A stretch of DNA of 63,150 bases, counting the filler, from Atractiella rhizophila (lineage: Eukaryota): assembly GCA_021432655.1 (NCBI GenBank). It is 4 parts of 4 records of this genome, joined end to end, with 100 filler letters (N's around TTAATTAATTAA, not from the genome) between each part and the next. Parts side by side here need not be neighbours in the genome. Positions count along the whole stretch, not along the records: positions 1 to 27,853 come from MU271570.1; 3 more parts are not named here. The stretch is one strand, 5' to 3'. Both the position numbers and the translations under genes were made by a program. The notes beneath the pieces were generated by a model. It was not told the DNA's origin. It saw only the letters and a list, made by a program, of their open reading frames with translations, and made no database searches. Below, in pieces: positions 4,026 through 27,953 of the stretch. Positions within the stretch are counted from its first letter, which is position 1, and every line of letters starts with the position of its first letter.

Positions 4026-4096
4026 GTGGTGAGAGAAGTGCTCAAAAGTACAGGCGTGAGTCATGCTAAAAACCCGTCGTGCTTTATATATAAGGA

Positions 4097-5737: not shown

Positions 5738-7243
5738 ATGTCTGCCGAAGCTTCTTCCTCCGTACGCGTAGCCAAAGATCTTACGGCCGGGACAGTGGGA
5801 GGAATCGCACAGGTATTGGTTGGGCAACCAGTTTGTGTTTTTTGGCTTCATCTCACTAGCAATGACTCTCGCAACTCTTAGTTCGATATCGTCAAAGTAT
5901 TTTCTCTCCAGCTCAAAAGATACGTTTTCAAGACAAGTAGGTTCGCCTGCAATCCTCTAATGCTTATAGCTCGGCGCTTCAATGCACAACATCGATTTTA
6001 AAGAATGAGGGCCCTTTAGCATTTTACAAAGGTCGGTCCTTTTGTTGCTCCTCAACAAAGATCCGCAATTTTTTGCTCTCCCGAGCTCATAGTAATGAGA
6101 ATGGGAGATTGCAGAGGCCAACCCAAACTGCTGCGCGATTAAACCGGCAGTTAACACACTTTTCAGGGTCATGAGCAGGGAATACCGCTTGAGAAATAAA
6201 TTCCCGTGCCCTAGGCTAACTTCATGCTTCTAGGAACGGCAATGCCTCTAGTCGGGATCGGAGCTTGCGTCTCCCTTCAATTTGGATGCCTAGAGGCACT
6301 CAAGAGGTTGTTTGGGTACGTTTCGCTCTGCTTTACTAGTATGCGCTTCTCATCACGGTATGTCAATAGTAACATCAATGCCCGCGAAGGAAGGGAGCAC
6401 ATGACTATTCCTCAATTGTACATTGCGGGTGCTGGTGCAGGAATCGGAAACTCCATTGTTTCAGGTCAATTCTTCTCTCTGTCTGAAGCCCTTCTTAACG
6501 AGTAAACAACTTAGGTCCTGTCGAACACATCCGTATACGGCTGCAAACTCAGCCCTCAGGTCCCAATCGTCTCTACCACGGTCCCGTGGATGCATTACGC
6601 AAAATTTACGCTACTGGCGGTGTGCGGTCTATCTTTGCTGGTCAAGGGATCACGATGCTCCGGTTCGTGTCCTCTCCATTCTCATTTTTAAACATGATGA
6701 AAGTTAATGAATGATACATTTAAAGAGAGGCAGTAGGCTACGGATCGTACTTTGCTGCTTACGAGTGGCTTGTCGAGCGCGAGTGCAAGAAATATAAGAT
6801 TTCACGCAAGGCATGCTTCACGTTTCTTAATTTCTTTTAAGTCCCCTGATGTACAGTCCCTGGTGACAGGAAATTCCGATGTCCCACTCTCTTCTCTTTG
6901 GTGCACTCGCGGGCTACGCACTCTGGTTTACTGCCGTATGCCTTCCCTCTAGCCCCTCCCTTGTCGCACCCCTCATGTTTTCCTCATTCATCTCTGCTCG
7001 CAGTACCCTCTCGACGTCCTCAAATCCCGACTGCAAACCGACGGCCTCTCCCGCTCCTCCACCGAAGTCACCCCCTTCGGCCAGCGCAAGTACAGGAATT
7101 TTGTAGACTGTGCTAGACAGTTATGGCGGGAACAAGGTGTGAAAGGTTTCTTGAGGGGCCTGGGACCCACCTTAGTAAGGAGCCCATTCGCAAATGGGGC
7201 TACATTTGCCGCATTTGAGGTCGCCATGAGAGCTTTGGGATGA
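5738..7243 (+). CDS. Mitochondrial carrier, Ymc1/Ymc2 (carnitine/amino-acid carrier-like) group; multi-exon
   Basis: KDLTAGTVGGIAQVLVGQPFDIVKVRLQ; FYKGTAMPLVGIGACVSLQFG; PVEHIRIRLQ; YPLDVLKSRLQ; RSPFANGATFAAFE - three PxD/ExxK/R repeats. Confidence 0.9.
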
Positions 7244-7491
7244 CGCATGATATTCTACATTAGAACACAATTCGTTACAGCAATCTGAGTTATGCATTCC
7301 CACGGTGTAACATAGGCAGGACAGAGTAATTCGATAAAATTTACAGGTACACAATAACGAAGGAGGTGGAAATGCTAGGATGATGTATGATGCACTTTTC
7401 TGGTTGGAGTGGCGACTTTCCAAATGCAAAAGAACATAAGAAAGAAGAAAACTAGGACAAAATTGAATGCTACATGGCCATCTTATATTCC

Positions 7492-7835
7492 TCACACTTC
7501 TGGCATCACTTCCGTGCCTATCCGACCACCTCAGCGCCGCACTATCGTCAACAAAACAACGTACGGTCGGTCTCTCTGTGCATCTCCCTGAGAATCTCGG
7601 CTGTTCTTTTCACGATGTCTCCATCGGGCAAAGAAGCCGTATTGGCAGGGTCCAGGAAGAAATCTCGAAGGTTTTCCCACGTTAGCAGTTGAACGCGACC
7701 GCCTGGGGTAGATGGATAGACGTATACGCCTTCGTGGGAGAACGAGAGGCGAGATGGCTCTGGTTCTGTATATGCAATAATGACTCAGCTTCTATGGGCA
7801 AGAAAGCGAAGGGACTGACGAGGCGACAAGCTCAT
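7492..7835 (-). CDS. Unannotated 80-aa microprotein, 3 exons (7835-7820, 7765-7565, 7517-7492); paralogue of 26463-26791
   Basis: MSLSPQPEPSRLSFSHEGVYVYPSTPGGRVQLLTWENLRDFFLDPANTASLPDGDIVKRTAEILREMHRETDRTEVMPEV; GT-AG introns of 54 and 47 nt; core conserved with the second copy. Confidence 0.85.
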
Positions 7836-9273
7836 AAACTATGAGAGCAAGCGGTGGCAATCTCTTCAGTGGTTAATCTTCTGACAGCTAGTCAGTCGGT
7901 TCTGTCCAAAGTCTCAAACGCGGCGTATTTATGTATTCTTTGCCAGGTGACTCAACCGGCACCGTGCAAGTCATCACGTATGTGATGGTTCGCCCTCGTA
8001 GGTCTGCTCGTAGATCCCGTACCGATCGGAAATTGACTGGAACCATACCATTCAAGAGCTTCAATACGGTGTAGCTTGCACCCCTGAGTAGCTTTGTTCC
8101 AAGTAAATGCAACAGATAGTCAAGTCAAGGAATGACGCGAAGGTTGTGAACGAGTCGGAATATCTGACGTCGCTCAGCCTCCAGAAACCTCGGAGGCACC
8201 TACGAAAGCCAAAGCCCTATTAATACGTTAATAACGTCCCGGCCAGTGGATGTCAACGCACTTTTACAAATGAGTGCAATCCTTTGACGTCTGATTCGTG
8301 CATATAGGTTGCCGCGTACGTGGACTGCCTTAGAATTGGAACGTAATTTGAACATTGCAACCCTGTGTGCAACAATGACGCATTCCTCTGAACTTTGTCC
8401 ACAGATCATGATGCACTGTTTGAAATAGCTGCTCAAACAGCTTCAAGCACCTTCACGACTTGCTCCAATGGCACCCTAGATTTCAGTCAGTCATCCCCTC
8501 TACCCCTAAATCTTCTTCCTTGTGTTCACTCTCCCCACCTTCGTTCGAACCCTGATGCAGGACGGCTGACCAGTACCGATCGGGAAATGAATGAGCACAT
8601 CTCGAAATCGAAGTCCCTCAAAGCCCTTAATGCAATCTATTTCGAAGCACTCCTTTCAAACCGGCACGCAACGAAATTATTTGATGCTATTTGTCACTTG
8701 GAGTCTGATTTGAGGATTGGGTTGACCAATTTGACATCACTCTAACTTCTAACAATGTTAGACAATATGCTCATCACGACGCGACGAAATGTGAGAGCTG
8801 TACGCTCTGAGCGAACTTCAAATTTCAACTTCTCAACATCCACATTCAATATTCAACGTCAACGTTCAACCACTCAAACGTAACTGAATATTGGTCAAAG
8901 TTTGAACCGTTGAGCCCTGGAGAGCATTGATCACAACAGGATGATGGCAGACTACTTGGAATGCTTGTCCTCTGTTTCAGCGAACTACTATGAGAGCTTC
9001 AAGTTAATGCTCCGACTGGGGTTTCCATGGCCTATATTATTGCTGAAGACGGTTAGAAGGTCACGCAATCCATTCAATTTGGTGCCAGCATGATAACACC
9101 ACCGCGCAATGCTCCTAGTTCCTCCACCGTTGAATCTTCTATCTCATAACAATAAGGAGGCTCTCCCAAGTCTGCCCATGACTCCTAAGAAAGCAGTTGC
9201 TACGCTGCAGATCAGGTCGCATTTCATTTCGGTTATTGCACCTGATGCTCTTGCTACAAAAGCCTTCAGCTAG

Positions 9274-10651
9274 CTAAATCGGTCGCAGCCCGGCCATATC
9301 TCGTAGTCTCTCGAAGGCTACAAGGCTTAAAACGGTATGAGGAAAGAGCCGGATCCAGCAACCGAAAAAACCTGCACCGGAACATTCGTCCATATGAATG
9401 GAGAAAAATCCATCCTCAATTTTCAACGCACCTTTATACAGGGCGAGAGGGCCTTCTCGAGTTACCAGAACGCTAGCAGCATGAAAGGAGGACTGGAATT
9501 GCCGTTCCTTATCTGCCATCAGCCGCACTTTAATTGTGTCGACTGGGAGAGAAAATCGGATTAGTTAATTGAGGAAGAAAGAACCTAGGGAAGAGAATTG
9601 ACCTGGAGCAGATGCGAGAGAACAAACAAACCCTGCGATGGCAGAGCAGAGGAGATGAGTTTTAAAGTCTTCCTTAAAGAACCCTGGAACAGTTTGGAGA
9701 AGTTCGTGCTTTGTAAAGTCGTACGTTCCGAGCTGTGAGGAGGTAAGCAGTCCGGCTCGTACTGTTGTTGGGAAGACCGCTCGGTACACTTCATTTTGAA
9801 TAGCACCCCATCAGCAATTGGGGTTTCAGGGTATGGAGAGAGATCTTTACTGGAGCGAATACCCCCTTCGGTGTACACCCGATGGATTTGTTGCCGAAGA
9901 TTGAGGACGGGTGCGCCATTGATTGCGGGAGCTTGCATCCGAACCTGAGAATAGGGCAGTTATATAACCGTTCCCTACAATAAAAGAGAATACCTTAAAA
10001 AGGTCGGCTGGGTTCGCGATGGCAGCCCCTAGCATACCTATCAAAGCAGTTTAACACAGCTTCAGGGGGACGGAGGTGGAGTTAGCTGACCAGAAGCCAT
10101 CCCTGCGCTCAACTTGAGAGCCAAACTGTTCGAGTCTTTGGACACTCCGATGGGTAGGAGAGAGGTGATGCCCATCTTGGCGAAGTCGTAGCACCCCATC
10201 CGGATTCCAGAATACGAAAACTCGCGCAGAAAAGATGCTTCGACGCGTTAAATTCAATATATAAGAGGAGGGAGGACGAACCTGAAACTCCTTTCCATAA
10301 CGCAAAAGGGCCTTCTTCACGTACCATCCGGAAGAGGAGGGAGAAGAATGGCGAGCTCTTATTCGACTTCGACTCTAGCTGTTGGCGAACTTTCACCTGC
10401 ATCACCACACAAAATCCCAAGGTCAATATACGCTGCTGGCCATGGCCGTAGATTAACCTACGATATCTGCCGGATTCGTGAACCCTGCCGCCTCCACAGC
10501 AAGCCATCAACAAAGGCAGCAAAGGGAAGAAGCAGATAGGACGAACAAAGCAGTTCGAAAGTCCTGCAAGGACCGTCTTGAGCCCTATGTCGCTGGACTT
10601 TGAGACAGAGGGGCTCGGCACACCAGTTGCTGGTAACGATACAGCTGACAT
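9274..10651 (-). CDS. Mitochondrial carrier, UCP/dicarboxylate-oxaloacetate carrier-like; multi-exon
   Basis: TNPADIVKVRQQL; REFSYSGIRMGCYD; ANPADLFKVRMQ; RAGLLTSSQLGTYDFTKH; WIRLFPHTVLSLVAFE. Confidence 0.88.
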
Positions 10652-10978
10652 GATTGCAATCCAAGGTGCAAAGATGGCTGCGTTGAACGTCGCGAGATCT
10701 GGGGTGAACGAGTGCAGACCACTAGCAGACCAACTGCAAGTGTCAATTTTTAACTCTCAGTCGCGTCGTATCGTCCGCCGAAGCCTTCGTCGAAGCCAGA
10801 GCTGGATGACCGATGATGCTGCTTCGGGTAAAGGCATGCCGCAGTGATTCTCATTCCGAGCGGCCATTTTGATTGCACAAAGGAGGCTGGCCTTGTGGGA
10901 TGACAGCTATATATACTATGGAAGGGACCTCGAAACCAATCAAACACTACTGCCACTTGCTCCGGCTGGACGTTAAAG

Positions 10979-12616
10979 TCACCATGACTTGCCCTGCCAA
11001 GTCCACTTCCTCCATCGTCCATTGTCTGCCCCTCTTTCAAACGGCACAAACTGCACCACCTCCACCTCATCCCATCCCTCCTCGACGGTAGGAGCCACCA
11101 AGTCCTTCTCCCAACTGGCATACGCAACATCTGGTGTCCACTGTTTCCCTTTATACACATATCCATAGACATTGTTGTGTTTCGCAAGGGGAAGAGGAAC
11201 CTTCAGGTAGAGGATGCGTTTGTGGAGGGAGGGCAGGGAGAGGTAAACGGATCGCGTAACCTGTGATCGGGAGGAGTATCAGAACAGCACGGTGCCTTGG
11301 GATGCAGAGCATACGCGGTCCTGGTTCACGTCGTCGATCACGACGCTCTTCCCTGCTTCCAGTGCATCTCTCGCTCTATCCACGCACCCCTTCACAGTCT
11401 TAAATACATCTTGACTCTGTCCACCGGAACCCAGCCCAAACTCAGTGCACTTCCTTTGAACATTAACTACGAGTGAGACCTACAACCCATTCGTACCCTC
11501 TCTCCTTAAACTCCCTGTAATACAAAGTCGTCTTTCCAGATCCTGGGGGTCCGACAAATAATACGATCTCAGGAGAAGATGGTGGTGGGGAGTAGACGAA
11601 AGGGTCTAACAAGCATAAAAATGTCAATCGCGGAGCGAGAGAAAGAAAGGAGGGAGATACGGACCGTTGTGAGCGTACTGGTGTGGATTGAACCCTTTCA
11701 AATCATATTTTGCACCCGGAGCGTTAAGAAAGAACTCTTCCGGCGTGAAAAAGGGGAGGTCTACATTCTGAGCCCACTCTATCACAAACAAACCAGGGCG
11801 AACCGAATCGTTCTGTCAGCATGTCTTGAGACGATGGATAGAAAACGGAAGGAAGACTGACTGCGATCGGAATCCGCCCAATCCGGAGGGTCCACCGTCC
11901 CGGCAGCGTCACCGACGTAGAAGCTGGCCTCCATGTCCACTTGAGAAGGGGAGATGGAGAGGATGGAGGCGAGGTAGACATCCCAGATACCTGTGCACGG
12001 CTTGCGGAAGATGTCGTCCGACGTAGCCCCGAGGAGGTGCAGGGGTACGTCAAGCTGTTCAGGTCTCATTCAGGATGTGAACGAAGGAAAGGGCGACAAA
12101 ATTCACCTCTTGCAGCACGGCTTTAGCTTTGATAATCCACTGCGCTGCGATTCTAGCTGGCAGGTTTTGGTTTGTGACAATGACGATATTCCATCTGTGA
12201 TCAATATTCAGTTATCGAACCCTCAAACACAGGAGGACGGACCCCTTTTCATGCAACTTGCGCAATCGCTCCACGACACAAGGATTCCAAAACATCCAAT
12301 CTGCCTCATCATTCGCAAACATATCTCCAGATCGAGTCTTGATGAGTGTCCCGTCCAGATCGAAGGCTCCTATCTTTACTTTCGTCCCAACTTCACCATC
12401 CTTCAAAACTTCCTCAACCACATCAGAGGATCGAGGGTTCATGTATGGAAAGCCATACGTCCACCACAAACAAGAAGGTTCGTCTGGGGCCACAGGATGC
12501 GAGAGGGACGGCCGTTGTATGATGGACGTGGGTGACGGCGCTTCAGGAGCATCGGTACGGGTTAGGAAGAAGGGATGACTGTCCTCGCTCCTGCTGGTGT
12601 TGGAGTTGTTGGTCAT
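10979..12616 (-). CDS. Polynucleotide kinase/3'-phosphatase (PNKP/Pnk1-like), short-N-terminus paralogue
   Basis: HAD motif [42 protein letters not shown]; kinase P-loop [10 protein letters not shown]; exons checked are in frame. Confidence 0.85.
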
Positions 12617-13608
12617 CTAAAAGGGTTTTGACGGCTTTGAGCAACTGCCGATCGACGGTTCTGACGTTCTGCTAAGGAGCTGACCGGCATATGAGATGCT
12701 GGCTGAAGTTCATAAGGAAAGTCATAGGGAACTGGGATCCCACTCGTTCGCAACCCAAGCCAGAAGTCGAATCATAGCCATTGTTCCGGCTCCGACGCCA
12801 CCCTCCATGCGATGTTAACCCACACCTAAGACTCGATGGGAGGTTGTACCTGTTGATGGGACGTTTGTACAACTCGATGCGCTATGTAGCTATGTCACCG
12901 CTGTTAAGATGAACGATTAAGTCTTGCTTACAGAATTGTTCCCCTTTGCCAACGGGCACAATCGCCCTCGAATTAATGCGGCTTCGATTAATGCTTGGGT
13001 GTTTGATGTACGCAGCTCGGACGCTCAAGTTCCCGCCATCTAGTGGTTGCGTTCCAATCCAGTGTGGCATAGGTCTTCGCTTTATTGAAATCTGGAAATA
13101 GGAACGCTGATGCCTTGGAATTGTCAGGGTGCTCTCTAAGTATCGAATCCGCGCAAGGTTGAGCGTTTGGTTGTGGCAGTCTATGCACAAGTACACATGG
13201 AGAGGAGAGAAAGGAAGGACCTACCTCACGAAGTACTAGTAGAGCTTGAATGAACGTGTCTTTTCCTGTGACACCACGTCCAAAAGGATCCACGAGCCTT
13301 GAATCTGACCAGCAACATTCCCGGACTCAATGACAGACTCGGGTGGAACAAATAACTCCTAGTGAGTGAGTGTAAATGAGAGACGAGAACTGCGGTGCAT
13401 TCTTCTGCTAAACTCTTTGCTACTGTATTGTCAATCTCTGCTCAATGTTGGAATTACCAACCACTGAATCTGAATCTTGTAAGGACAACTGAGACGAATA
13501 CAGTCAGGTACAGCGCCATGCGAACATATCCTGTGTAGTGGAGCGGGCGAGAGAAGGATGAGCCCCGAAGTAACTTGAAGTTTTTGGGAAGTAAATTAAT
13601 ATGTATTA

Positions 13609-13890
13609 CAAGTGTGTCAACGGCCTTCGTCCCTCAGGCCCCTCACCCACTTGCAAGGGGCATGGCCCCTTGAACCCTACTGTGACCGTTGTCAGGGTTC
13701 GAGTCCAGCACAAAACACATTTTTCAACCCTTTCAGATTAAAATTTCCTTGCAGGTTCAGAAAGGGGCAAGCATATGGGATATGATGGTATAATAAATTT
13801 CATTCTATTGTGTATGGTGAGGGAGGTGTGAGGGCTCAAAAGTGCGTCTTATGACTCATGCCAAGAACTGATGAATCTTAGAGTATAGGA
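13609..13890 (-). mobile_element. Non-autonomous mini-Helitron X
   Basis: Plus-strand A|CAAGTGTGTCA end with hairpins GGCCT-TCGTCCCTC-AGGCC and CAAGGGGC-ATG-GCCCCTTG; other end GCTCAAAAGT..TGACTCATG..TATAGGA|T resembles the Helitron 5' end. Confidence 0.7.
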
Positions 13891-13904
13891 TAGGATAGGA
13901 TAGA

Positions 13905-14137
13905 CAAGCTGAGCGGCCCCCTCGTCCCTCGGTGAGAAGTCACCTGACTTTGTCTTGAAAAAATATTTTTTTTCGTGTTTCAAATGATCTTTGCTGTATA
14001 CGCTTCGAAAGGCACCGACACGCGTATTCCGGTGGTATTCTCAGAACTCTGATATGGTTGTTGAGGGCGGTGATATAAACGCTCAAAAGTACATGCGTGA
14101 GTCATGGTAAAAAGCCGTCGTGCTTTTTATATAAGGA
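13905..14137 (-). mobile_element. Non-autonomous mini-Helitron Y
   Basis: A|CAAG..CCCTCGTCCCTCGG end; 13995-14137 colinear with Helitron 3953-4096, ending TATATAAGGA|T. Confidence 0.8.
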
Positions 14138-14297
14138 TACTCCTTATAACGTTCTAACGATTCGACAACCCTATCGAAACCTTCTTTGCCGCCTGTCTCC
14201 GGTTGTAACGCATGTCCATCAAACTCGAAAACAGCCCCGTAGCCGCCCATCGCCGACTCCAAGTCAACCAAAAACCATCAACACTGGAACAGGATTC

Positions 14298-17200
14298 ATG
14301 GCCTCTCCCATCACGCTTCTCTGTCTGGCAGTCGACGACGAGCGAAATGCCTTTGGTTCCGCGTTCATCCTTCGCACACTATCCAATGCCTTCATCAGCG
14401 ACCTTCAAAAAGCGATCAAGGCCGAGATGACTCCTCGGTTGGACCATGTTGCTGCTAACGAACTCTTGCTCTGGAAGTTATTGACACCACCACTTACTGG
14501 CCGCACCAGAGTTGAGAAAACTGCTTTCGACGCACGAATTCAGGGCTTGGTGTTTCCATCGCCGGAATCGGATGAAGCGCTCGAAGGAAACGGTGTTGTT
14601 CAGCTTCTCGACTCAGCTGAGGAGTTATCATATTATTGGATGGGAAGCCCCGAGCCAAAGCATCTTCATCTCATTGTGCAGGTACCGCGTACGTCTTTGA
14701 TCTTTATGTATGCCTTGCATATGTTGAGATAGAGCAGCCACCGAAAGACCAACGAAGAGGCTGAAGCTCGCATCAGAAGACGGCACTGCAACATTGCGCG
14801 CATCTGACACGGCGGTCACAAGTGAAACTGCAGCGCATGGTGGGTGCACGGACTGTGTAAGTGAAATGCTCAATAAATGTTGGCCCTAGGCGTTCGACAG
14901 GGTAGCCCACCCCCGAAAATCACGCTTGATGACGCGATCCAACAAGCAAAGGCCTTTCTAGAGCAGAATTCACATTTTCTGAAATTGGCAGCGACCACGG
15001 ATCCCCAAGTGGATGACTCGAACCCTTTTTTCGTGGACGGGCTTGGTGCTCTATGTGACGCAGATCCAGGTACTATGGATAGGGTTGTCAAACTGTTTCA
15101 ACCCGGAATCTCGAGGTGGACCATCTTTTCGGCTTTCGATACATGTTGATGTCCCCTGTAGGGTTCTATTTAATACGTCAGGATCGGGGAAGACTCGACT
15201 CCTTGTCGAGGGCCTTTGTCAGTACTGGGGGTTCTATTTTACCCCGGATCCGCATCCCCGCCTTGGCTCGGTCGATTTCTCTCGATCCGTTCACAATGTT
15301 GGCTCATATATAGACGCCGGCATCACTTTCGCCCCGAACCTTCCGAACTCACCGAATCGGCGCCGCGTACCCCTTGAGCAAAATCGGACCATCGCCCGAA
15401 CTGTTTTTCTGAGCGTCTTACTGGCACGCCTCCTTGTACTTGAAGCATTCCTACAGGCTGGGGCCGGTATCCCCGCCGTTGAGCTCCGCCGTCGATGGAC
15501 GTATCTCCAGCTTGTGCCATCGGTGCTTCAATCTCAATTTTCTAGCACAGAGGTAGATATATTCGACGGTGTGTACCAAACGATCGAACGACATGGAGAC
15601 AACGACCACCATCTCGTCAACTCTCTTATCAAAAGGATCCGTCAAGATTCCCGGGTTTCGTCCATCTCGCCGTTTTTTCTAGTCTTGGATGAGGCCCAGC
15701 TGTGTTCCAATCAGTACGAGGGAGCGTTCCACTCCGAGAGCGATAAAAGTCCTGCCGGAAATCGTTCAGTACTTCGAGAGATCTTCGCTGCATGGGGGCG
15801 TTCTACCCTGGTGAACACAGCAGTGCTCTTCTCTGGGACTGGTTTCTCTCTTACAAAGGTTTTAGGGCCCTTGGCGAGTTCGTTGGGAGCGGTCGATGAC
15901 ACTGTCTTTACCGACATGGGGGCATTTATTAGCAAAGAGCATCAGGCGGCGTACATCACGAGACACGTGGCGCTGGATGAAGACACAAAGGAGGAAGTGC
16001 TACGTCGTGCATGGCGATGGTTGCGTGGACGGTGGGCACTTTGCTCTTGGCTCGAACCTTGTTCTGACGCGCGCAATTAGGCATCGATTTACGGGAGGAT
16101 TTGTGTATGTCTTACGACGTTGCGGCACCAAGAACGCATCAGCTCTGTTAACCCACTACGTCCAAATTCTTACTGATTACGTCCCTACCGATGGCTCCAA
16201 CAACATGGCAATGACGCACCACGAAAGCGAGCTGTTCCCGGCATTCAACAGCATATCTCAGCATTTCCAAAAGCTTGACGCCGATGATCGTCTTCGCCAA
16301 CGGGTTGCTCTTGCCATGAACACCTTCATGTTACGGCACAGGCCGCACTTTGTCGCCCCCTCTGACGCCGATACAATCGAACTTGGCATTGCTCGACATA
16401 CGACATCTAGCGAAGGGCTTTACAAAAGCATCGTAATCGACGAGCCACTCATTATTGCAGGCGCACTGAGGCATTTTGAGAGTCGTACGGAGTCCATAGA
16501 GGAGACGTTGCGCGAAAGCATATGCCGTCTCCCCATCGGTCCTGTTCGAGGCTACGATCTCGAAGCCATCGGAATGTACATTCTCGCTCAACAGCTCGAC
16601 GGAACCAAGAGTCTCCGCGAAATTTTCAACTTTCAGACGGACTCGATCAATATCGGAAAGGGGAAAGCGCAGTTGATTGCTATCGACGAGATTAATCCGG
16701 ATGGCACACTGCGGTATACGATTGTTAACAAGCCTTGGCTATATCCATTTGGAATGGGCTTCGAAGCAGGCAATCCTTCCGAACACGAGCGCTGGTTCAA
16801 AGGTACAGGAGTTCCTTTTTGTTTCCCTGACACGAGATCGGGACACGATGTTGGGTTCTTTGTGCTGGTGGACGGCAATTCGGTTGTATTTGTCACGGAT
16901 CAGTTCAAGTCTTTCAACAAGGACCTCAGTGCAGCAACAACAAAACGAGCGCTAAAGTCTCTTTCTCCAGCCGAATGTTATAAGGACAAGGTTAGCAAAG
17001 CCACTCTTTTTGCTTGTACAAGGTTGACACAAACCCTCAGAATGGCAAAATTTACACACCTGGCAGGTCCGCTCGGCAAACGATTCTCAAAATCCTCAAA
17101 CGCTCCAACACCCCTTGCCTTGGCATCCTCACCTCGTTTCCGTCGAATCCACACCTTCAGACAATCAATGAACAGGCACCGGAGCACTTTGCGTTATTTG

Positions 17201-17313
17201 ATTTCTCGAAAGTCAAAACAGAGTTGGGACGGCTCCTTACTGAGTTTAGGAGTGACCAGTTTTCAAACCTCGGTGACATTATCCTCTCAGAATGGCCAGT
17301 TGAAGATTATTAA
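14298..17313 (+). CDS. Crinkler (CRN)-type protein: Ubl header + P-loop NTPase + PD-(D/E)xK-like nuclease; ~6 exons
   Basis: N-term ITLLCLAVDD..AF..ISDLQKAIK..ANELLLWKL..KHLHLIVQVP (LFLAK/HVLV-like); RPTKRLK NLS-like; VLFNTSGSGKT; FFLVLDEAQ; GRHRFT; C-term GYDLE..FPDTRSGHD..DQFK. Confidence 0.8.
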
Positions 17314-18089
17314 AGCCCCATGGAATTGTTTTGTATCCAGTGTACATATATGGTCTGCAAGGAAATGGTGACAAGGGCAATGCAGGCGTCACTGGTACTG
17401 CCTGTGTTGCTGGATTGCCTATCTTCAGAACCCCGCAGGTGGCGTACTGATCACTGTTGGGACTTCATGGAAGCATGAACGCTCATAACAGCGTGATTAT
17501 TCGATAAAAGGACGTTACAAGAGCTCTTTGCATCTGAGAAAGAGAGGAAAAAGAGATTGAGCAACTCACTGGGAAGTTGATGTGCTTGCGCACAGCTTTA
17601 CATACCCTTTGGGACAGTGACGGCTTATCTAATGAGCAGTGCCTCCATTTGTGGCGAATGAGCAGATGAAGGGTCGACAAAGGGACGGCAGTGTTGTTTG
17701 GATGCGCTGACCCAAGATACCCTAAAACGGATCGTGATTCAGCAGGGCATTGAAAATAGAGCTGCCCAGTCAGGGGGCAAGAAATAAAACGATCAGAGGA
17801 GTAAATGGATCACGATCGCGTGAATATTCACGGTCAAAGCATGACTCAAGCTCGGGCCCATTCTGGACATGTGGCAAAATTATGACGTGTGTCCGTCTGC
17901 TGCCAGAATCTGCCACGATTGAGGAGGACGCACATCGGGTGATGGACTGGCCAATCTGGACACCTGTCACCATGTCACTGGCGATTTTATTCGCGCACAT
18001 CAGGCGATCCTACTTTTATGGTTGTTGGACGTGCCAGCTGTGGACAGTGACGATCGAGATATAGCTGTTAGGATGGCTTGCATGCGCGT

Positions 18090-18752
18090 TGTAGCGGACG
18101 ACGACAGGGCTACATACAAGTGTTAGAGACAACACCAATATAATACAATGTAAACCGGGACAGAAACCTGAATTATAGACTGGTTTAAAGTAAGCAGTCA
18201 AAAACGTGAATTACTCATACAAGCTTGAAAGAACACCAATGTAATACAATGTAAACCTAAACAGAGACCTGAACAAATAAGCGAAGCCAAGAGCCAGAGA
18301 ACATGAGAACTTTCAGGGAGAGGAGGGCAGGGCAGTGAAAAGAGTGCCGTTAGCTTCAACAACGACGTTGGAAAGCTGCAAGTAGCTACGAACCTATCAG
18401 GGAAAAAGTGCTGTTCGACTTCAACAACGACGTTGGTTGTTGCGAGCAGCTGAGGGGAAAAGAGGGACCCGATCGCGACCTCTTTTTGAAGCTGCGCAAG
18501 GGTCCCACGTCTTGTTAACAATGCTCCCAGCACTTTTCAACAAAACGACTTACGCATTAGGAAGTGGGGTTTGCTCGAATGCTCGACGACGAGCTAGCAA
18601 TCCTGTTTCCTGAGCTGACCGTCAGCATGTGACCAGGACGACCTGGAGACTCCGCTTACCTATCCCGGTAGGTAAAGGAGAGGGAGACGACTCCGAGGCG
18701 CGTCGCGCCTGAGGTGGTGTTGGAGGCAAACGTCCCGGACGCCGCACGTACA
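18090..18752. mobile_element. Solo-LTR-like repeat, copy 2
   Basis: TGTAGCGGA...GCACGTACA; diverged homologue of 4641-5177; internal duplicated AACACCAAT.TAATACAATGTAAACC motif. Confidence 0.65.
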
Positions 18753-19502
18753 ACTTGTGTAATCCATCCATTAAACTCAAGTTATGGTGCAGGCAGCTTA
18801 GTCAATACCATGACTCATTGATGAAAGTTGATTCGTTGCCATTTGTCGTGCAACCATAACTGGAACCATATTTTCCACATATTTATTTTCCACCTTTGCC
18901 TTCTTTCTGTTCCTCACCGGCCGCACCTTGGGTTCAATGGCTCCCAGTCCCTCTATATAAAGGCTTAATCCAGCTGCTTCGCCCTCCTAAGTAGCGCCTT
19001 CTTGTGCTTCTGGACCATCTACCATGAGTCCCAACTTGACAATCAGTCGGAGTTCTTCAGAGAACTCTTCCCCAGCGTTACCCGTAAAGTCGGACCACCA
19101 AGTGAGAGCAGCTTTGCGAGGAGACACGACGTGTGTGTCAGAAAGCAATACTCCAGGGTCCGTGGTTCTACAGTAACTTTACAAGTATCAGTGTTTTGCA
19201 AAGTCGACTGATAACAGATGATGAATGATGATGACATTGGGTGAACAGCTTCCAACACGAGCAAGATGGTGCGGTTCTCGTTCTTCAGTCTACATCTACA
19301 TCTCCTGACTACCAATGTGAGCACTCCTCAATTTCCTCTTGAGCGACAGAAGGATACTTATTGCACGCAGGTACCGGAACCGTCTCTCCCTTGGTTTCGA
19401 GGCATGATCACTTGCCAAGCCGTACTTCTCCAGCCAGCCATGGTTCATCTCCTATCGGAATCAATGAAGTAAGCCCACATCGATCACGCTGATGTTTACA
19501 AA

Positions 19503-20092
19503 ATGTATTCATTTCTCCGACAGCATAGCCGCATGGGCGAGGGCGATCGCGCTGCCTTCTTTAAGGCATTCGAGAAGATGATGGCAGACGAGACGACAAA
19601 GATCAAAACCCCGGACTACCTTCCCGTCATCTCTTCCGCTGTTGCAATGTTCCTAGCTTCAGGGAAGAAGGAGGACCACGGACAATATCTGTGGCTCTGG
19701 ATCGCTTTTCTCCTCCTCATCATCGGTGTCGCATGGGTGGACATTAGTTCTCGTCACTCCTATGCCCGTAGAGGTGAGTCTTCCACCTCGTTGCCTTTTA
19801 CATCCGAACTCAAGTAAACATAGCTAGTGAGAAGCCTAGAGAGCCTACTGGGGAAATAGTTCCTCTGTTGTTGTTTTGGGGCTTTCACCTCATAATTGCG
19901 TACCGCTTCACCTCCAAGCACTTGGACGACGAAGAGAAGTGGGCGTTACACTTGTTACCGGCAATAATCCTCGCCTGGATAGCAACTGTATTGTTCCTTT
20001 GCAGAACCGGGCTCAAGAAATACTTGTGGAAAATTATGGGATTTTCCGGAGGTGGTCATGGAACAATGAAGGTGGAACCAGAGGCGGTTTAG
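19503..20092 (+). CDS. Hypothetical membrane protein (3' exons; 5' end unresolved, TATA at ~18955)
   Basis: Two ORFs joinable at a GTGAGT intron, with three hydrophobic segments (YLWLWIAFLLLIIGVAW; LLLFWGFHLIIAY; LLPAIILAWIATVLFL). Confidence 0.45.
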
Positions 20093-20397
20093 GACGGGTA
20101 ACTCAAAAAGGCATATCGCTCAATTGTTCAATGACGTTGTAGTGTAGTGGAAGAGGCGGAGTTCCCAAAGTTCATTCGGTATTCTCTCAAAGAGGTTAGG
20201 CATGAAGCCACGAAACGAATGCTTCTCAAAAATCGCTTACATTTCTCCTCGCACTGCAACAGAAATTCACTTGCTGGTTGGTCTAACCAAGTCGGTGTAA
20301 AGTCGACCTCAACCTTGCAAACCAAACCACGTCAATTGAAACTCTACTAGAATCTACCTCGTCTCCTTGTAACGATGTATAACCTCATGATGAGAAA

Positions 20398-22661
20398 TCA
20401 CATCGGCTTTCCCTCCCAAGTCCACCTCCTCCACCTTCCCGCAGCGTCCCCCTCCGCCTCCAACGGCGCAAACAACACCTTCTCGACGCTGTCCCAACCT
20501 TCCTCAACGGTAGGTACGACAAAGTCCCTCTCCCAAGTAGTATACGCGATATCCGGTATCCACTGTTTTCCCTCATGCACGTGTCTATGGGTATTATTAT
20601 GTTTGGCAAGGGGAAGGGGAACGTCTAGGTGGACGATTCGTTTGTAGAGGGAGGGAAGGGAAAGATAGACGGATCGGGTGGCCTATGCTCATGCGTTCAC
20701 ATGAACATTATAGGGCGTTCGAGGGAGCATCATTAGCACGTCAACTATGATTGTTTGGATTGTGAAGGACGTACAGGATCTCGGTTCGTGTTGTCGATGA
20801 CGACGCTCCTTCCCTCGTCTAGTGCTTCTCTAGCTCTATCCACACACTTCTTCCTTGTCTTCAACGTGTCTTGGTTCTATCCATCAATACCAGTGAAGAA
20901 AAACCTCTCAGCTTGCAAACGCTAAATAGAAACAAGAGGGGGACGCACAACCCATTCGTATCCTCTCTCCTTGAATACCGTGTTGTACAGAGTGGTCTTG
21001 CCAGATCCTGGAGGTCCCACAAACAACACGATCTCGGGCGTAGACGGTGGCGGAGAATAAACATAAACGTCTAAGCAACCCGACATCAGCTGGGCTGAAC
21101 TACATCACAAACAAACAAACAGCGAGACTAAAGACGGAAGCAAACAGAAGATAGATGGATTAAGAAGGGTAGGCACCGACCTTTGTTAGTGTAATTGTGA
21201 GGATTAAAGCCCTTTAACTCGTAGATAGCCCCCGGAGCATCGAGGAAAAACTGCTCGGGCGTAAAGAAGGGGAGATCCAAATTCTGTGCCCACTCTATCC
21301 CACACCAATCCAATCAGCACCAATCCATCTGTCAAGCTATAGTCCGATGAAAGGTACTGACTGCGATCGGTATCAGCCCAATCAGGAGGATCCACCGTTC
21401 CAGCAGCGTCGCCGACGTAGAAACTGGCGTCCATGTCGACGCTAGAAGGTGGAATGGAGAGGATGGAGGAGAGGTAGACGTCCCAGATGCCTGTGCATGG
21501 TTTGCGGAAGATGTCGTGCGTGACGGCAGCGAGCAGGTGGAGAGGTACGTCGAGCTGTTTGGTATCGTATAGGTGTTAATTGAGCTATCAGGATGGAAGA
21601 TAAGAGGGAAGATTTGACTTACGGCTCGGAGCACGGCTTTCGCTTTCGGGATCCACTTAGTTGCGTTCCTCGCGGACAGGTTCTGGTTGGTGACGATGAC
21701 GACGTTGAATCTAGCATAAGAATTCGCGAAAAAAGAGCGTGTCAGACTTCGTTCTTGCAAATTATAAACAGAAATGGGACGCACCCCTCTTCGTGGAGTT
21801 TCCGTAACCGGTCCTTTACACAAGGATCCCAAAACATCCAGTCCCCATCATATTGAGCGAAGCTTCCTCCAGATTGGGTCTTGATGAGTGTGCCATCGAG
21901 GTCGAACGCTGCAATCTTTACTTTCTCCGCACCTCCGCCTCCATTCCCCACACTCACATCTTCTATCTCCCGCCCATCCGTGGAAGTAGCAGGAGAAGAA
22001 GGAGGAGAAGAATCTCCCAAGTTCATGCGCGGAAAACCATATGTCCACCACAAACAAGTAGCATTCTGAGGTGCCAACGGATGACACAGAGAAGGACGTT
22101 GTATGACCGCCGTGGAGGAAGCCTTCTCTTGAGCATTAGGAGGGGGAAGGAAGAAAGGATGGGTGTCTTTCCCCCTCCCTCCGTTGTAGTTGTTAGCGAG
22201 TGAAGAGGGAAAGTGCGAGCCACATCCTCGTCCCCTCCCCGTTCCACGGGAGAGATGGGGAGAGAAACCACGGCCGCGGGAGGGTTGGAAAGTGGCGGCG
22301 GTCGGTGAGAGCTTGGAGGTGGCGGTCGTGGAGGCTACTGGTGATTCTAAAGCAGAGGCTTCGGCGGAACTAGAGGTACGGGAGAATTTGGAGAAATGTG
22401 TCCTTATGTCGCTCTATTCTCCAAATATCCATGAGTCCAGTTCTATTCCAATCGAGGCGCGAACTTCGGAATACTACGAAAATAAAAATATAGACGACAG
22501 ACCTGCATACCCGCTCCTCCTCCCCTCCTCTGACCCATCCCCCTGCATCGCCCTCTCCCCCTTCCCAAGGCAGACTCTTGAGCTCCCTCCTGCGCACTCC
22601 GCGAGGAACTGGCACTGGACTCAGACTCGATCTCCTTCTGCTGCCTCTTGCGCGGTGGCAT
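20398..22661 (-). CDS. Polynucleotide kinase/3'-phosphatase (PNKP/Pnk1-like), long paralogue with basic/RG-rich N-terminus
   Basis: [70 protein letters not shown]. Confidence 0.88.
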
Positions 22662-23345
22662 GCCTCCGAGCTCGGACACAGGGAGGGACGAGAAGCTAGA
22701 TGATCGGCGGAGGCGGAGAGGGAACACGCGGAGCAAAAACGTAGAAGGAGCCAGTGTGGCAGTATTGCAGGTGAGTTTGGACGACGCGAGTGGAGCACAC
22801 TATCCGATAGTCATGAGTCTAGTTCGAGTCGAAGAAGCGTCGGTTATATAACGCCGATTTCATTTATATCATTCCAAATACAAATGCTTGTCGAAATACT
22901 CATCTCTCTGTCCTTCAAAATTGCTTCTGTTGCACAACGATCTCTCTGGAACTTATCATCACCGTTACCTTAAGAGGATTGCGCGCATGTTGCCCCGAGC
23001 TCCCAGTGGGCAAAAGTGTGTTCGTGGCCTTTAAACTAATCATTTACTGTTCCTCAGTTATTAGTTTATGATTCATGTACTCTGGCGCCGCGCGTATACT
23101 GTTTGCTTATCTTGCTCTTTAGCAGAAATCCAGCATGATGTCAAGAGAAGAATGAAACATGCCTGACTGACTGAACACGAGAACAATTTTGAGCCTTATC
23201 TTGCTCGACTTTTCGAATTATTGTCACAAATGTTGAACACGGCAGCTGGCTTTGATCAAGGGAACGCAATTGTGGAGGATCATCAGGGTGGATCGATGGG
23301 CTTGCTCTGCACTTTGACAGTTTGACATTTTGACATTTTGAGACC

Positions 23346-24420
23346 CTACTCATCGATCAGCTCCTGCCAAATCTTTTGATCCCTCCCAAACTTCCTCAAA
23401 CCTTTCAAAAACCTCATCCGCCCCATCCCTTCCATCATCTCCGTCAATCGCACCGCGATCTCCTCCACGGCCGCGTCTTCATGCTCCGTTTGCACCTTGA
23501 CTAAAACCCTATCCACCCCTTCAGATTCCTCGCTGACTCTCCATTTTTTTGCCTCGGAGCTTCCTAATTTATTTCGTATATCCAGGTCCGCTGGGAAGGT
23601 GGAGTCCTCCACCGGATCACCCTCATCACCGCCAGCGCCGCTGTACCGTGCCCAGTAATCAACTTCCTGTTTCGTCGCCTCGACTTCCTTCCCCTTCAAC
23701 TTAGGAGCCTCAGTTTCATCATCATCGTACCCAGCCCAAAAATCACTTTCGTTTCCCGCACGGTGCATGTTGTCCACCTTGCTCTGCGCAGCTTTTACCG
23801 CCTCTTTGTACGATGGAAACCAAGTCTGTGCAGACTTCGTCTGTAGATATCCTTTTTCAGGTGATGAGACGGAAGGGAGGCGCAGGTCAAAGTATTTCCA
23901 TTCTTCCTCTTCCCAAGAAAGAATAATCGCTATCCCATCGTCTCTGCCGTTGGTGGATTGGGAGCCTTCAAGAGGCGCTGAAACAGCAGAAATAACGACC
24001 TGGCTCCATATCTCTCTCCCACTTCCATTCTCAACGCTGGTGCCAGTCTTTTCCAATTCTTCCAACTCAGGATGGATATCTACCATCCATTCAACCTGCC
24101 ACTTAGAAGGTGCCTCGACGCCATCCACGCCCTTCTCTTCGAATGCAATGCGACGTCGTTCGACCTCTTCGGAAGGGACCCATTGGAGGTATTCTAATGG
24201 ATTGTCGGGGGAGGAAGACAGGAGAGAGTGACGTTCTTGGAGGGAGCGGGATAGGAAGTGGATGGGGAGGTGTGGCGGAGTGAACAGAATGTAGGGAAGG
24301 ATGTTCTGTGAGGACAGATGGGGACTGGGAGCTGGAGCTGTAGATGTTGACTGAACGGCCTGATGTTCAAACCAAGCTGTGAGGAAGGCTCACGACTTGG
24401 TTGAAAAGCACGAGTACCAT
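23346..24420 (-). CDS. Hypothetical acidic fungal protein (start approximate)
   Basis: Long open frame (260-aa ORF extends upstream to LPIHFLSRSLQERH) with motifs ILSWEEEEWKYFDL, SDFWAGYDDD, DYWARYS. Confidence 0.65.
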
Positions 24421-26462
24421 TTCAGCTTAACAGGATACTAGTAATACTCCTAGAGGAATGTTGTTTGCTGAAAAGTTTGCTCACCTCTGGTTACCTGAAG
24501 CTTTCCTTTCCTGGATCACTATACATACTTCCGTCCATCTGCGCCATCGCGCGCTGATCAAAGTCACTCTGCCCACGATCCATGATCGATATATCGATGT
24601 CATGATGGGACGACCAGATAAGATATGCGAAGAGTCAAACCGATCCGGCATCACGCCAGGGGTTGGTCGCATCCGAGGTGTCGAGGGTTCGGATTCGCAA
24701 ATTCTAGTCCGAATGATAAACGTGGGCAAATGTAGGGGACGCTCGTAGTCGGATTAGAAACCTAGTTAGGGGATGGGGTAGATTGGAGTTGTGAGTGCGT
24801 GGGAACATAACTTAAAGCATAGTGCGTTCATCTCTCCAGGCAGGGTTGGCATGTTTGCGTTACAGTCGCCGCTGTATCTCTGTTCCTCTCGCCATTCGAC
24901 ATGCAGAACCCTTGACGTGTGGAAAGAGACTTGGTGGTGCCTGTTTCGCTGTCACTTTTGCGCGGCTTTGTTCTGTTATCTGGTTTTGCTCAAACAAGGG
25001 TTGTTTATCCTCGCTATGCCGATCCTGTCAAATGACATGACAGAAAATCCTTGTCATGCCATGATGGTGCAGATGCTTAGTAAGCGATGACTTACCCATA
25101 AAGACACTCCGTTGAGGGTGGTACTCAATGGGCGGTTGGGACGGTGCATTGCCCAGCGATTTCAGAATGATTTGATATCCGTGGTCCTGTGGAACTTAAC
25201 TCATTGAATCTATCAGACATGTGTCTTTGCCCTCAAGTTGTTGCAAGAACCTATGGTCCTTACACCTTACGCGTATCTCTCACTGCGTCATTATGTCTTT
25301 CACTCTGATTTCCCCAACTCGGGACAAAAACGTAAAACTCAATGACGTCGAAACAGCATGATGATCGAGGTAGCGCTGTGTCAAATTGGACAATGAGGTC
25401 ATGGCAAATAAAATTCAAAGTGTTGCCGATCAAAAACGGTAGCATTTCTCATGGATACTGTTTTGCTCCAGAATCAGTCAACTTGGAAGTCGCGTTCGTC
25501 TGTTATTTGACTGTTTGCCCAAAAGATAAGGCGCTTCCTTGTCCTGCTCCTCTGGCAGCACAGGCCGCTCATGTTGGCCTATTGTGTTGCGATCGCTCGT
25601 CCGATGTCACGATCGGAGATGATGAATAACATCTGGATTTATCTCGAGACACATTAGCAACCACCCATCAGGTTCTGAGCGCTAGAGAATAGTCCTAAGA
25701 CCGTGGAAGCTTCTGAGGCACTTGTGGAACGTTTTGCACGTCCGTATTTGTCGTGAGACACGAGTTTTGATGGAGACTTCATTCCATCCAACATCAGATC
25801 ATTCATTCCCTGAACACCTTCTGCCAGGTTGCAGTGAACGCGACGGATCAATGAACTAGCCAGGAAGCGAAATAGACTTCCTTGATCTTCTGTCCGCCTT
25901 CATTCGTTAGACAGCATACTTCCGCGGCACATTTAAGAATAGTTGCAACATTGCCTCACTTTCGTTGAGTATTGTAATGGACCAAGATCGGTAGTTGAGC
26001 CACAGCAACCACACAATGTTACTGTAGCTGGTTGTGCTGTGACCGGCCCAACCGGTTCTAAGGAAGGCTTCTGAAATGAATCACTGTGAAATGCTTTGTT
26101 GGTTGAACTGCCGAAATTGCCGAACCTTGGCTTTGCATGTCTTCACGTTCAGCTTGTGTGCTGCGCCAAACAAGGCGATCATGGCATCAATGTGCCAAAG
26201 GGCATCCAAACCTCAAACAAACTGATCGGTGAACGAGGGGAACGAACAGGGCACGAGAATGAAAGTCCGTGTTCCACCTTCAAGTGGAGCCAACAGCCTC
26301 AAAGGCTGTCGTGAATAAAAAGCAGAAAGCAGTCTGGGCAAAGCCACACATTGATACCATTGGTCGTAGGCATCTGGCCATAGTTCTCAAATTCAGTAGA
26401 ACCAGCCCTTGACCTCTCCAGGACTGTCTCAACTCGGCAGCTTTGCATAAGCGTAGAACAGA

Positions 26463-26791
26463 ATGGAATCAGGTTTGCCATCCCAGAATGAATGCTCAGT
26501 CCAACTGCTGACAGGCTTTAATAGTCACCTCGAGCATCTCCATTGCTCCTGAAGGGGTCTACGTGTATCCAAGGACGCCGGGTGGAAAAATTCAACTTTT
26601 GACTTGGGATAATCTGAAAACGTTTTTCCTTGATCCGTCAAGCACTGAAGCCCTGCCCGATGGAGACATTGTCAAAAGGACTGCAGAAATTCTGCGGGAG
26701 ATGGAAGCTCAGAACCAAGAAGGTGTGTTTCTATCGGGACCCCGCTTAAACAATCTAATATTCTCCTGAAGGAAACCCCTTCCCTCAATGA
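26463..26791 (+). CDS. Unannotated 75-aa microprotein, 3 exons (26463-26472, 26525-26722, 26772-26791); paralogue of 7492-7835
   Basis: MESVTSSISIAPEGVYVYPRTPGGKIQLLTWDNLKTFFLDPSSTEALPDGDIVKRTAEILREMEAQNQEGNPFPQ; two phase-1 GT-AG introns as in the paralogue. Confidence 0.82.
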
Positions 26792-27853
26792 CGCTTAGCT
26801 TTAGAACGTAACTTCCAAATAACGTCCTTCTGTGATCATTCCTTTTGCCTTTCGACTCGCATAGATGATCTTTCGTGCTTTCGTTGTGCTGTGCTTTACG
26901 TTATCACGATTGTCCGTTACTTTCACATCACTTATCCACAAATACCACTGGTGAATCCTGAAAGCGGATAGATCATTCACACATCTGGTTATCCCAATCC
27001 AAGGTCCAACCCCTTATTTGCCAAAGATCTCATCTCAAATGCTAAAGTTGGTGTTGAAGGGTGTGCCTAGACTTCGAAATCCGCCATCATCCTCATGAGT
27101 TCCGTTCGTATCTCAATCATGTATCCAACTTTCTCCTTAGTTCTACATCCACTGCATCAACAGTTCTCCAGTGTCTATTTGTTTTGACCTAGTACGTTGC
27201 TGTTTTTTCTCTTCTGCGAGGAAGTGACTCCTAGCCCTCGTCGAGTTTCGACACCCCGACTGAGCAGGTTTCCTGCGTTGACCCTCTGAAGGCGCTGCCC
27301 ACGCGACCACCCCAAAGAAGCTTGTTAGGTGGAGGTGCTCACAAGCTCAAAAGAATTGTTAGTGTGAGGGACATGTCGCCTCTTTCCAACTGCTGAATCA
27401 ATGTAGAATACATACTTCTGAAAGTGTAGCTCTTTTTCTGTATTGAAACAATGGCAGCTCCATGTCCAAATTTAAAAAAACCAATAGTGTGACCTTGAGC
27501 TTGATTGCATGACAAATGGGATGAACCCAACGGGCTGAACTGAAGCCCCTACGGTCGTGCACGGTCGTGTACACGGCAAAGTGAGTTTCGAGTCCAGGAA
27601 ATCCAAAATTTGAAAACTCACCGAAGTGAGCCCAACGTGAGTCCAAAACGAGCACCCAGGTGCTGGGTAAGTGACTTTAGGAAGTTGTGGCGCGAAATTG
27701 AATCCTGTGGGGACCAGGAATAGAGGCAAACAGTCGAAGCCGATTTCGAATCTCACACAAACTCGCTGAGCGACCGTCCTCTGATCCATATTTCGAGTCC
27801 CCATGCAGCTGAAACTGCGCAAGTTGGCCGCAAGCTTGGATTGTGTCCGAAGG

Positions 27854-27953
27854 NNNNNNNNNNNNNNNNNNNNNNNNNNNNNNNNNNNNNNNNNNNNTTA
27901 ATTAATTAANNNNNNNNNNNNNNNNNNNNNNNNNNNNNNNNNNNNNNNNNNNN
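27854..27953. other. Assembly gap with TTAATTAATTAA filler
   Basis: N44-TTAATTAATTAA-N44. Confidence 0.97.

Follow-up and report, generated by a model that had tools for sequence, protein, structure and literature searches.

The closest described counterparts of the genes analyzed here are proteins already annotated in Atractiella rhizophila. Two of them, P0001 (BT69DRAFT_1352515) and P0002 (BT69DRAFT_1346360), are 89% and 86% identical, respectively, to one of the two genes (copy B) across the full 65 residues of the query, and 11 further BT69DRAFT proteins contain the same domain, with invariant columns common to them and to both copies. These relatives are without name, Pfam domain or described function; they are annotated as longer proteins, some of them with N- or C-terminal extensions that may be disordered tails or artefacts of gene models. 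In the parts of the literature consulted, work on A. rhizophila concerns ecology and taxonomy, with nothing on the present family, and work on microproteins and orphan genes makes no mention of Atractiella.

We analyzed a window, i.e., the whole 63,150-nucleotide stretch of A. rhizophila DNA under study, for which the original prediction proposed a hidden, two-member family of microprotein genes. Two three-exon loci sharing a conserved core are confirmed, copy A on the minus strand and copy B on the plus strand, and they are the only two family copies within these 63 kb. However, the family has more than two members and is neither hidden in its entirety nor composed of microproteins alone: the same domain of ~55 residues is found in 13 A. 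rhizophila "hypothetical proteins" and in three unnamed environmental sequences, and several of these relatives are annotated and 130-260 aa long.

Results

In copy A, exon 1 (7820..7835, 16 nt, with the ATG at 7835), whose joining to exon 2 is seen in RNA contigs from X10 and X2, is followed by intron 1 (7766..7819, 54 nt, boundaries GTCAGT..ACAG), exon 2 (7565..7765, 201 nt), which codes for the entire conserved domain, intron 2 (7518..7564, 47 nt) and exon 3 (7492..7517), where the frame check places the stop codon. Copy B has the same organization, with exon 1 at 26463..26472 (10 nt, ATG at 26463), intron 1 at 26473..26524 (52 nt), the domain-coding exon 2 at 26525..26722 (198 nt), intron 2, which is predicted only, at 26723..26771 (49 nt, boundaries GTGTGT..GAAG), and exon 3, again including the stop codon by the frame check, at 26772..26791. 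The exon-2 open frames span 7548-7784 (minus strand) and 26512-26769 (plus strand), and each spliced model is one M..stop frame, of 80 aa for copy A and 75 aa for copy B. All four introns are GT..AG introns of 47-54 nt in phase 1, as was proposed; the proposed equivalence of their positions holds only if indels in the variable flanks are allowed, the offsets relative to the core being two codons for intron 1 and one codon for intron 2.

Each predicted protein is scarcely more than one domain of ~55 residues, and both are acidic (pI 4.8 for A and 4.4 for B). The ATG of copy A has T at position -3, which is a weak start context. Averaged over 9 residues, Kyte-Doolittle hydropathy peaks at 0.13 for A and 1.23 for B within the first 30 residues, and the longest hydrophobic run is three; thus, by a hydropathy profile rather than a dedicated signal-peptide predictor, neither protein has a hydrophobic leader, in line with the claim that signal peptides are lacking. 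Secreted small effectors carry a signal peptide and often cysteines; this possibility was rejected, there being no such leader and no Cys in either protein. A known non-coding RNA family was rejected as well, since Rfam covariance models gave no match at E<=1 at either locus (6800-8400 and 26000-27300).

RNA contigs were examined for both genes; it should be noted that X10 is taken as RNA because of its spliced contigs only. The joint across intron 1 of copy A (7765->7820) was found in X10 (one contig, depth 7290.6) and in X2 (one contig, side 72), and its CT..AC ends on the plus strand fix the reading direction. X2 record 14 covers 7566-7765 of exon 2 with no other letters. For intron 2 of copy A, the loose end behind 7517 in two X10 contigs is identical, letter for letter, to the plus strand of 7565-7584. 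For copy B, a 558-nt X1 record has the joint 26472->26526 (depth 7.76), a single letter intervening, and covers 26526-26718 with 7 other letters (7 of 193), so this copy B transcript derives from another strain or a relative. X3 record 29 covers 26768-27038, which includes exon 3 of copy B. The predicted junctions 7819/7766 and 7564/7518 were recovered exactly and 26473/26524 to within one base; 26723/26771 is not among the joints listed. An X10 contig end at 7378 carries sequencing-adapter letters; this is probably the end of the transcript, so that the 3' UTR of copy A would run to about 7378. In X10, the bin of copy A has a summed depth of 75074, the highest of 30 bins, 25 of the others lying between 12 and 360, and the depth of its joint contig compares with 244-593 at the joints of several neighboring genes. 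One of the two genes may thus be very highly expressed, as judged from contig depth, which is a poor measure of expression.

We compared the exon-2 frames of the two copies and found 44 identical residues out of 68 (BLASTP, E 5e-35), including 41 of the 51 columns of the core that runs from EGVYVYP to ILREM. The 64 aligned codons comprise 15 identical ones, 28 with synonymous and 21 with non-synonymous differences; for example, the quoted codons GGC GTA TAC GTC in one copy versus GGG GTC TAC GTG in the other are present in the sequence. Identity at codon positions 1, 2 and 3 is 45/64, 55/64 and 23/64, respectively (chi-square p 1.3e-8), i.e., third positions are almost randomized between the copies. 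As a neutral control, random mutations were placed in copy A until its DNA differed as much as observed, at 69 of 192 nt; none of 20000 simulations reached the observed 43 identical residues out of 64, the mean being 24.0 and the maximum 34. The codon-position pattern and the simulation show that selection acts on the protein. Both loci are coding genes under purifying selection, in agreement with the original prediction. By maximum likelihood, dN amounts to 0.115 in the core and to 0.207 over the full 64 codons; dS is saturated and, therefore, the suggested dN/dS comparison yields no numerical ratio.

DNA similarity between the copies (68.6%) is limited to 7581-7733 versus 26703-26551, within exon 2, and no alignment was found for introns and flanks of A and B, as had been claimed for the introns. 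Given the saturation of synonymous sites and the loss of any alignment in introns and flanks, copies A and B are old paralogues, the protein of which is kept by purifying selection. Both lie tail-to-tail with a mitochondrial-carrier gene; a segmental duplication was nevertheless rejected, because the two carrier genes are not closely paralogous and copies A and B share nothing outside exon 2.

An exhaustive search with the two-copy profile returned 16 proteins at E<=0.001, of which 10 share the domain (relatives' scores, E 4.3e-35 to 9.4e-4). The other six (P0003, P0007, P0010, P0013, P0014 and P0015) were rejected as repeat proteins that sum many weak matches: they are of bacterial surface-repeat, WD40, short peptide repeat, six-HMG-box (P0013), unexamined repeat and He_PIG types, and they score 25.9 to -4.9 bits against a 15-sequence domain HMM, with no single convincing stretch. 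A word-seeded profile search returned 13 proteins, of which 11 carry the name A. rhizophila; P0001 and P0002, found separately, add to these. P0001 (154 aa) is not among the matches listed by the profile search, despite fitting its length range. A word-seeded search limited to 35-114 aa gave no candidate, and a collection of 5.8 billion clusters contained no protein identical to copy A or B, which fits the claim that gene callers missed both genes. A metagenome locus (L001; 37% identity over 41 residues, seeded by an exact HEGVYVYP word) lies on an AT-rich 1077-bp contig with an unrelated ORF alongside and was judged to be a chance match. As far as seen, i.e., in the collections searched, the family is restricted to A. 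rhizophila and the three environmental sequences.

The 15-sequence HMM recognizes copies A and B with E 6.2e-31 and 3.5e-31, both copies being among its training rows. The alignment of 15 rows has 11 invariant columns (G, V, W, L, T, L, P, D, T, A, L), all of which are present in A and B, in register. In the family tree, the members fall into at least three clades. Some relatives are stand-alone domains, and others have disordered Ser/Thr/Pro-rich and basic extensions. Judging from their sequences, P0001, P0002 and P0005 may represent intron read-through; the longer relatives may partly be gene-model errors, and arguments from fused tails are weaker for this reason.

AlphaFold gave a pLDDT of 89.2 for copy A (66-aa model) and of 87-89 for the domain blocks of P0020 (96-aa model), the flanks of which are disordered. 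The predicted elements are E5-8, E12-16, E25-28, H29-37, H39-42 and H50-65 in copy A, and E26-28, E32-37, E40-45, H46-54, H56-59 and H67-83 in P0020, i.e., the same order in two modelled members that are only about 51% identical. The underlying alignments are shallow (12 and 15 rows), and the fold could be wrong in detail. According to the models, the domain would consist of three short beta strands and a helix starting from the invariant Trp, followed by a helix of one turn, a loop that is conserved and, at the C-terminus, a long helix. For a homodimer of two copy A peptides, the prediction, which did not use the alignment, scored 0.10 versus a mark of 0.32.

Pfam does not contain the domain, and no relative of solved structure could be detected, in accord with the original prediction that no known domain could be assigned. 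Specifically, neither window peptide matched Pfam at E<=10, and none of 10 relatives did so at E<=1; a PDB sequence profile search found only 2dfj_A (E 1.4); Foldseek against PDB, the proposed structural check, gave no match at E<=0.001 for either model; and the best E in a BFVD structure search was 0.077. The ESM Atlas offered no more than small clusters, either nameless or implausible, at 0.92-0.93, their recognition falling below the mark, and no usable match for P0012.

Discussion

The best overall explanation, which we consider probable, is that these are real, expressed, old and lineage-restricted three-exon small-protein genes that were missed by annotation. It is very improbable that the conserved exon belongs, as a domain, to a larger gene, the models of 75-80 aa being wrongly truncated. 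The annotated relatives of 83-263 aa would agree with a larger gene, as would the C-terminal location of the domain, behind about 90-130 residues, in six of them, and the X1 contig, which departs from the window upstream of 26427 with 149 loose letters that could be a 5' exon. However, the ATGs are preceded by in-frame stops (TAG two codons upstream in copy A; TAG and TAA three and five codons upstream in copy B), exon 3 closes the frame after eight codons in A and six in B, and the adapter-tagged contig end suggests a transcript of ~0.4 kb for copy A. Moreover, no further coding similarity is found within 2-4 kb of either copy, and P0009 (89 aa) and P0020 (96 aa) are likewise small. That the proteins are antidote, immunity or regulator partners of a lineage-specific conflict system, such as one involving the Crinkler-type protein encoded between the copies, is highly improbable. 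Small, abundant, fast-diversifying and expanded families are typical of such partners, and an ORF with a Crinkler N-terminal domain (PF20147, E 7.9e-13) is located between the copies at 14079-14732, followed by long unassigned ORFs (the run spans 14079-17371) and partly repeated at 3762-4097. Neither copy adjoins it, the distances to the run being about 6.2 kb and 9.1 kb, and the core is under strong purifying selection, which is not the pattern of an arms race. Scarcely credible is the view that the family is cargo of a selfish or mobile element, or one of its ORFs, rather than a set of host genes with a role in the cell; the family does occur in multiple copies and within a restricted taxonomic range, several members are on shared A. 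rhizophila contigs, of lengths 242761 and 27560, and a PIF1-helicase ORF with repeats of 95-97% is nearby in the window, but the copies have neither flanking nor intron similarity nor terminal repeats, the protein is conserved although synonymous sites are saturated, and the window has only two copies, both surrounded by housekeeping genes.

For these lineage-restricted small-protein genes, we tentatively propose, at somewhat less than an even chance, that the domain serves, without enzymatic activity, as a module that binds a protein or nucleic-acid partner, because the invariant columns contain no His/Cys/Ser or acidic set of the enzyme type and the domain occurs alone or attached to tails. 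From the alignment, the invariant residues look structural and not catalytic. Contact would be made by the stretch of highest conservation, comprising helix 1 and helix 3 with the loop (consensus FLLDP.NT..LP.DDVV[KR][RQ]TA..L), and the stand-alone forms would be free, abundant versions of the module. A more specific variant, in which the domain acts in the nucleus and binds nucleic acid in the manner of the small beta-sheet-plus-helix binders of the PC4/Sub1 type, is improbable. PC4 has four strands and one helix; its superposition scores are in the noise range, and there is no sequence match. The broadest version seems rather unlikely, namely that this is a new alpha/beta fold which arose in, or is confined to, Atractiellomycetes, with ~20 genes, and that unannotated stand-alone members among the most abundant culture transcripts are free regulatory subunits, A being used in culture and B in roots. 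If true, such use of paralogues by condition would link the family to the root-endophytic lifestyle.

These genes provide a clean, checkable example of short multi-exon genes missed by annotation, whose transcripts are correctly spliced and which are under strong constraint, and they define a domain seen, so far, in a single class of root-associated basidiomycetes that has received little study. Fungi commonly have orphan families of small proteins, and no long-standing question is opened by this one. Provided that both fold and restriction are borne out, the family would be a tractable model for the birth, expansion and recruitment of small domains, and it could serve as a marker of, or handle on, the biology of Atractiella in plant roots.

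We also compared the domain to other named systems. The PqqD-like RRE domains superpose without significance (rmsd 11.3 for both); compared to them, the present domain is ~25 residues shorter, eukaryotic and stand-alone, with no Pfam match at E<=10. There may be a motif resemblance to APSES/KilA-N (GV.VY ... W.N ... RT..LE.E), for which Pfam reports no match at E<=10. There is a sequence likeness to helix 2 of the HMG box: D[IV]VKRTAEILRE of helix 3 resembles DVIKRTGEIWR of the six-HMG-box protein, and it is through this resemblance that P0013 entered the profile search (E 3.1e-4). Assignment to the HMG box (PF00505) was rejected, since hhalign against the six P0013 boxes gave a probability of 21% over 18 columns only, with no Pfam HMG match. 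It should be noted that the Trp of the P0013 helix motif is Leu in the present family and that, whereas strands have no counterpart in the HMG box, the model has three of them before the helices.

Gene models and paralogy

Each copy forms a three-exon gene with one frame from methionine to stop. Copy A, on the minus strand (7492-7835), has exons at 7835-7820, 7765-7565 and 7517-7492 and encodes 80 aa (pI 4.83); copy B, on the plus strand (26463-26791), has exons at 26463-26472, 26525-26722 and 26772-26791 and encodes 75 aa (pI 4.41). The four introns, of 47-54 nt, all have GT..AG ends and are in phase 1. Relative to the core, i.e., the 51-aa segment of exon 2 common to both copies, intron position differs by two codons and one codon, within variable flanks. 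In-frame stops lie immediately upstream of both ATGs, neither protein contains Cys or a hydrophobic leader, and neither locus matches an Rfam family.

In a stop-to-stop listing, the core falls in a frame of 78 codons for copy A (7548-7784, minus) and of 85 codons for copy B (26512-26769, plus). The two frames share 44/68 identities (BLASTP, E 5e-35) and 41 of the 51 core columns, which bears out the shared core at two loci described in the original prediction. DNA similarity in the window self-comparison is limited to 7581-7733 versus 26703-26551 (68.6%, 153 nt). Translated comparison of 4-6 kb about each copy found no further shared coding similarity, and an HMM of the family domain (about 55 residues), applied to all 2067 six-frame ORFs, found no third member in the window.

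Selection

Among 64 codons aligned between the copies, 15 show no change, 28 carry synonymous differences and 21 carry non-synonymous ones; the first, second and third codon positions agree in 45/64, 55/64 and 23/64 cases (chi-square p 1.3e-8). Because dS is saturated (not computable by NG86, above 20 by ML), no dN/dS can be quoted and ML dN alone is given (core, 0.115; overall, 0.207). The proposed test of exon 2 thus yielded no ratio, and the predicted purifying selection is supported instead by the codon positions and by a neutral simulation, in which the 69 observed differences were placed randomly in copy A (n = 20000): 43 identical residues were observed versus a simulated mean of 24.0 and maximum of 34, with 0/20000 replicates reaching the observed value. 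The antisense frame aligns too; however, the codon-position pattern and splice orientation fix the sense strand. Copies A and B are old duplicates retained through selection on the protein.

Transcripts

Run X10, in which many contigs match the window at 99% identity or more, is taken as RNA-derived because its contigs are spliced. The joint of copy A intron 1 (7765 to 7820, CT..AC on the plus strand) occurs in X10 at depth 7290.6 and again in X2, which belongs to another study and whose record on 7566-7765 contains no other letters. For intron 2, two X10 contigs reach 7517 and then run on for 20 letters that equal 7565-7584, so that the gap exactly matches the intron. At copy B intron 1, the joint in an X1 contig runs from 26472 to 26526 and has one extra letter; as 7 other letters appear where this contig crosses exon 2, the contig is attributed to a relative or another strain. 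The predicted junctions were recovered for three introns, that of copy B intron 1 to within one base, and copy B intron 2 is absent among the joints listed.

Of 30 bins in X10, that of copy A ranks first in summed contig depth (75074), whereas the copy B bin is low in X10 (57.5), yet deepest in X1 and X3. As a measure of expression, contig depth is unreliable, and these values do no more than hint at high, perhaps condition-specific, expression. X10 also contains a second high-depth joint, from 7757 to 7820, that has two extra letters and keeps the frame at a net loss of 6 nt, and a high-depth variant of the exon 2/3 joint (7515-7567) with four other letters; an allele, an alternative acceptor or a close, perhaps near-identical, paralogue could account for them. 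The stretch of some 2 kb upstream of copy B (24400-26400) has no ORF of at least 120 codons, and an unspliced 1487-nt X10 contig lies on 24793-26279 (depth 11.9, 0 other letters); it may come from a long UTR, from a non-coding transcript or from carried-over DNA.

Family members

A word-seeded search found no proteins of 35-114 aa with enough words in common with copy B. Among longer proteins, two A. rhizophila hypothetical proteins match it, P0001 (BT69DRAFT_1352515, 89%) and P0002 (BT69DRAFT_1346360, 86%). When 1.84 billion representatives were searched exhaustively with a profile, 16 proteins scored E <= 0.001, 10 of which have the domain in common; the other six were rejected as repeat proteins summing weak matches. 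A profile built from the hits retrieved 13 proteins (11 from A. rhizophila and two without organism name). The family totals 13 A. rhizophila proteins, three unnamed sequences and the two window genes. The original prediction of real, old, selected coding genes stands, whereas its limit of two members does not, and "hidden" applies to copies A and B, missed by annotation, rather than to the members already annotated, as hypothetical proteins only. The P0001, P0002 and P0005 models look like intron read-through, which would fit a family badly handled by gene callers.

Maximum-likelihood analysis of 15 domain sequences (P0005, P0016 and P0022 were excluded as partial) resolves three groups: copy A with copy B, P0001 and P0002 (support for the last three, 98/92); six proteins whose domain is C-terminal (97/94); and a looser group of P0020, P0021, P0008, P0012 and P0009. 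In the 15-row alignment, 11 columns do not vary, and Pfam scans of 12 sequences gave nothing above noise.

Genomic neighbourhood and proposed function

The window is ordinary fungal chromosome, with genes for tRNA ligase, GLE1, transketolase, GNAT and three mitochondrial carriers, a PNK3P-domain ORF, a PIF1/repeat patch and a Crinkler-N gene. The carrier genes lie within 24 kb (5666-7243, plus; 9274-10756, minus; 27472-29118, minus), and each copy is tail-to-tail with one of them; we attach no meaning to this arrangement because the carriers are not close paralogues of one another. Elsewhere, an old paralogous pair (10988-12610 versus 20407-22194, 65.6% DNA identity, 1.8 kb) overlaps the PNK3P-domain ORF in its second copy, and X10 contig depth is very high for the gene at about 11.2-11.9 kb (joint depth 13004.5). 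Long minus-strand ORFs with no Pfam match (49270-51099 and 54665-56335) fall in a tandemly duplicated block (46723-50958 versus 52606-58888, 73-79% DNA identity).

Copies A and B are expressed, spliced and selected genes of a restricted family whose predicted fold is consistent. Residues at the invariant positions (G, V, W, L, T, P, D, A) are structural in character, the two proteins are acidic and soluble, and the domain is found alone or adjoining disordered, partly basic tails; on these grounds, we tentatively propose a non-enzymatic binding module, a possible reading in which the conserved stretch of helix 1, loop and helix 3 would serve as the contact surface. Of four rival readings, all judged unlikely, one is that the domain binds nucleic acids. 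Another is that the copies are partners, in a conflict system, of the nearby Crinkler-type gene, where long ORFs lacking a Pfam match come after an ORF that bears the Crinkler effector N-terminal domain (PF20147, E 7.9e-13), together at 14079-17371 (plus); the 5' part of the Crinkler-N ORF is repeated near 3.8-4.1 kb (3762-4241, plus; 77-82% DNA identity). The copies might also be mobile-element ORFs. The window does contain what looks like a transposon-like patch, perhaps Helitron-related, with minus-strand PIF1-like helicase ORFs (536-2019; PF05970, PF21530) beside 95-97% identical direct and inverted repeats (1-272/4379-4649, 4094-4377/4647-4938 and 4376-4460/5297-5213). Finally, each copy could be a truncated model of a larger gene.

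No published description of the domain family was found in the part of the literature that was accessible. The domain family is itself new and belongs to a familiar type, that of taxonomically restricted small-protein genes missed by annotation.
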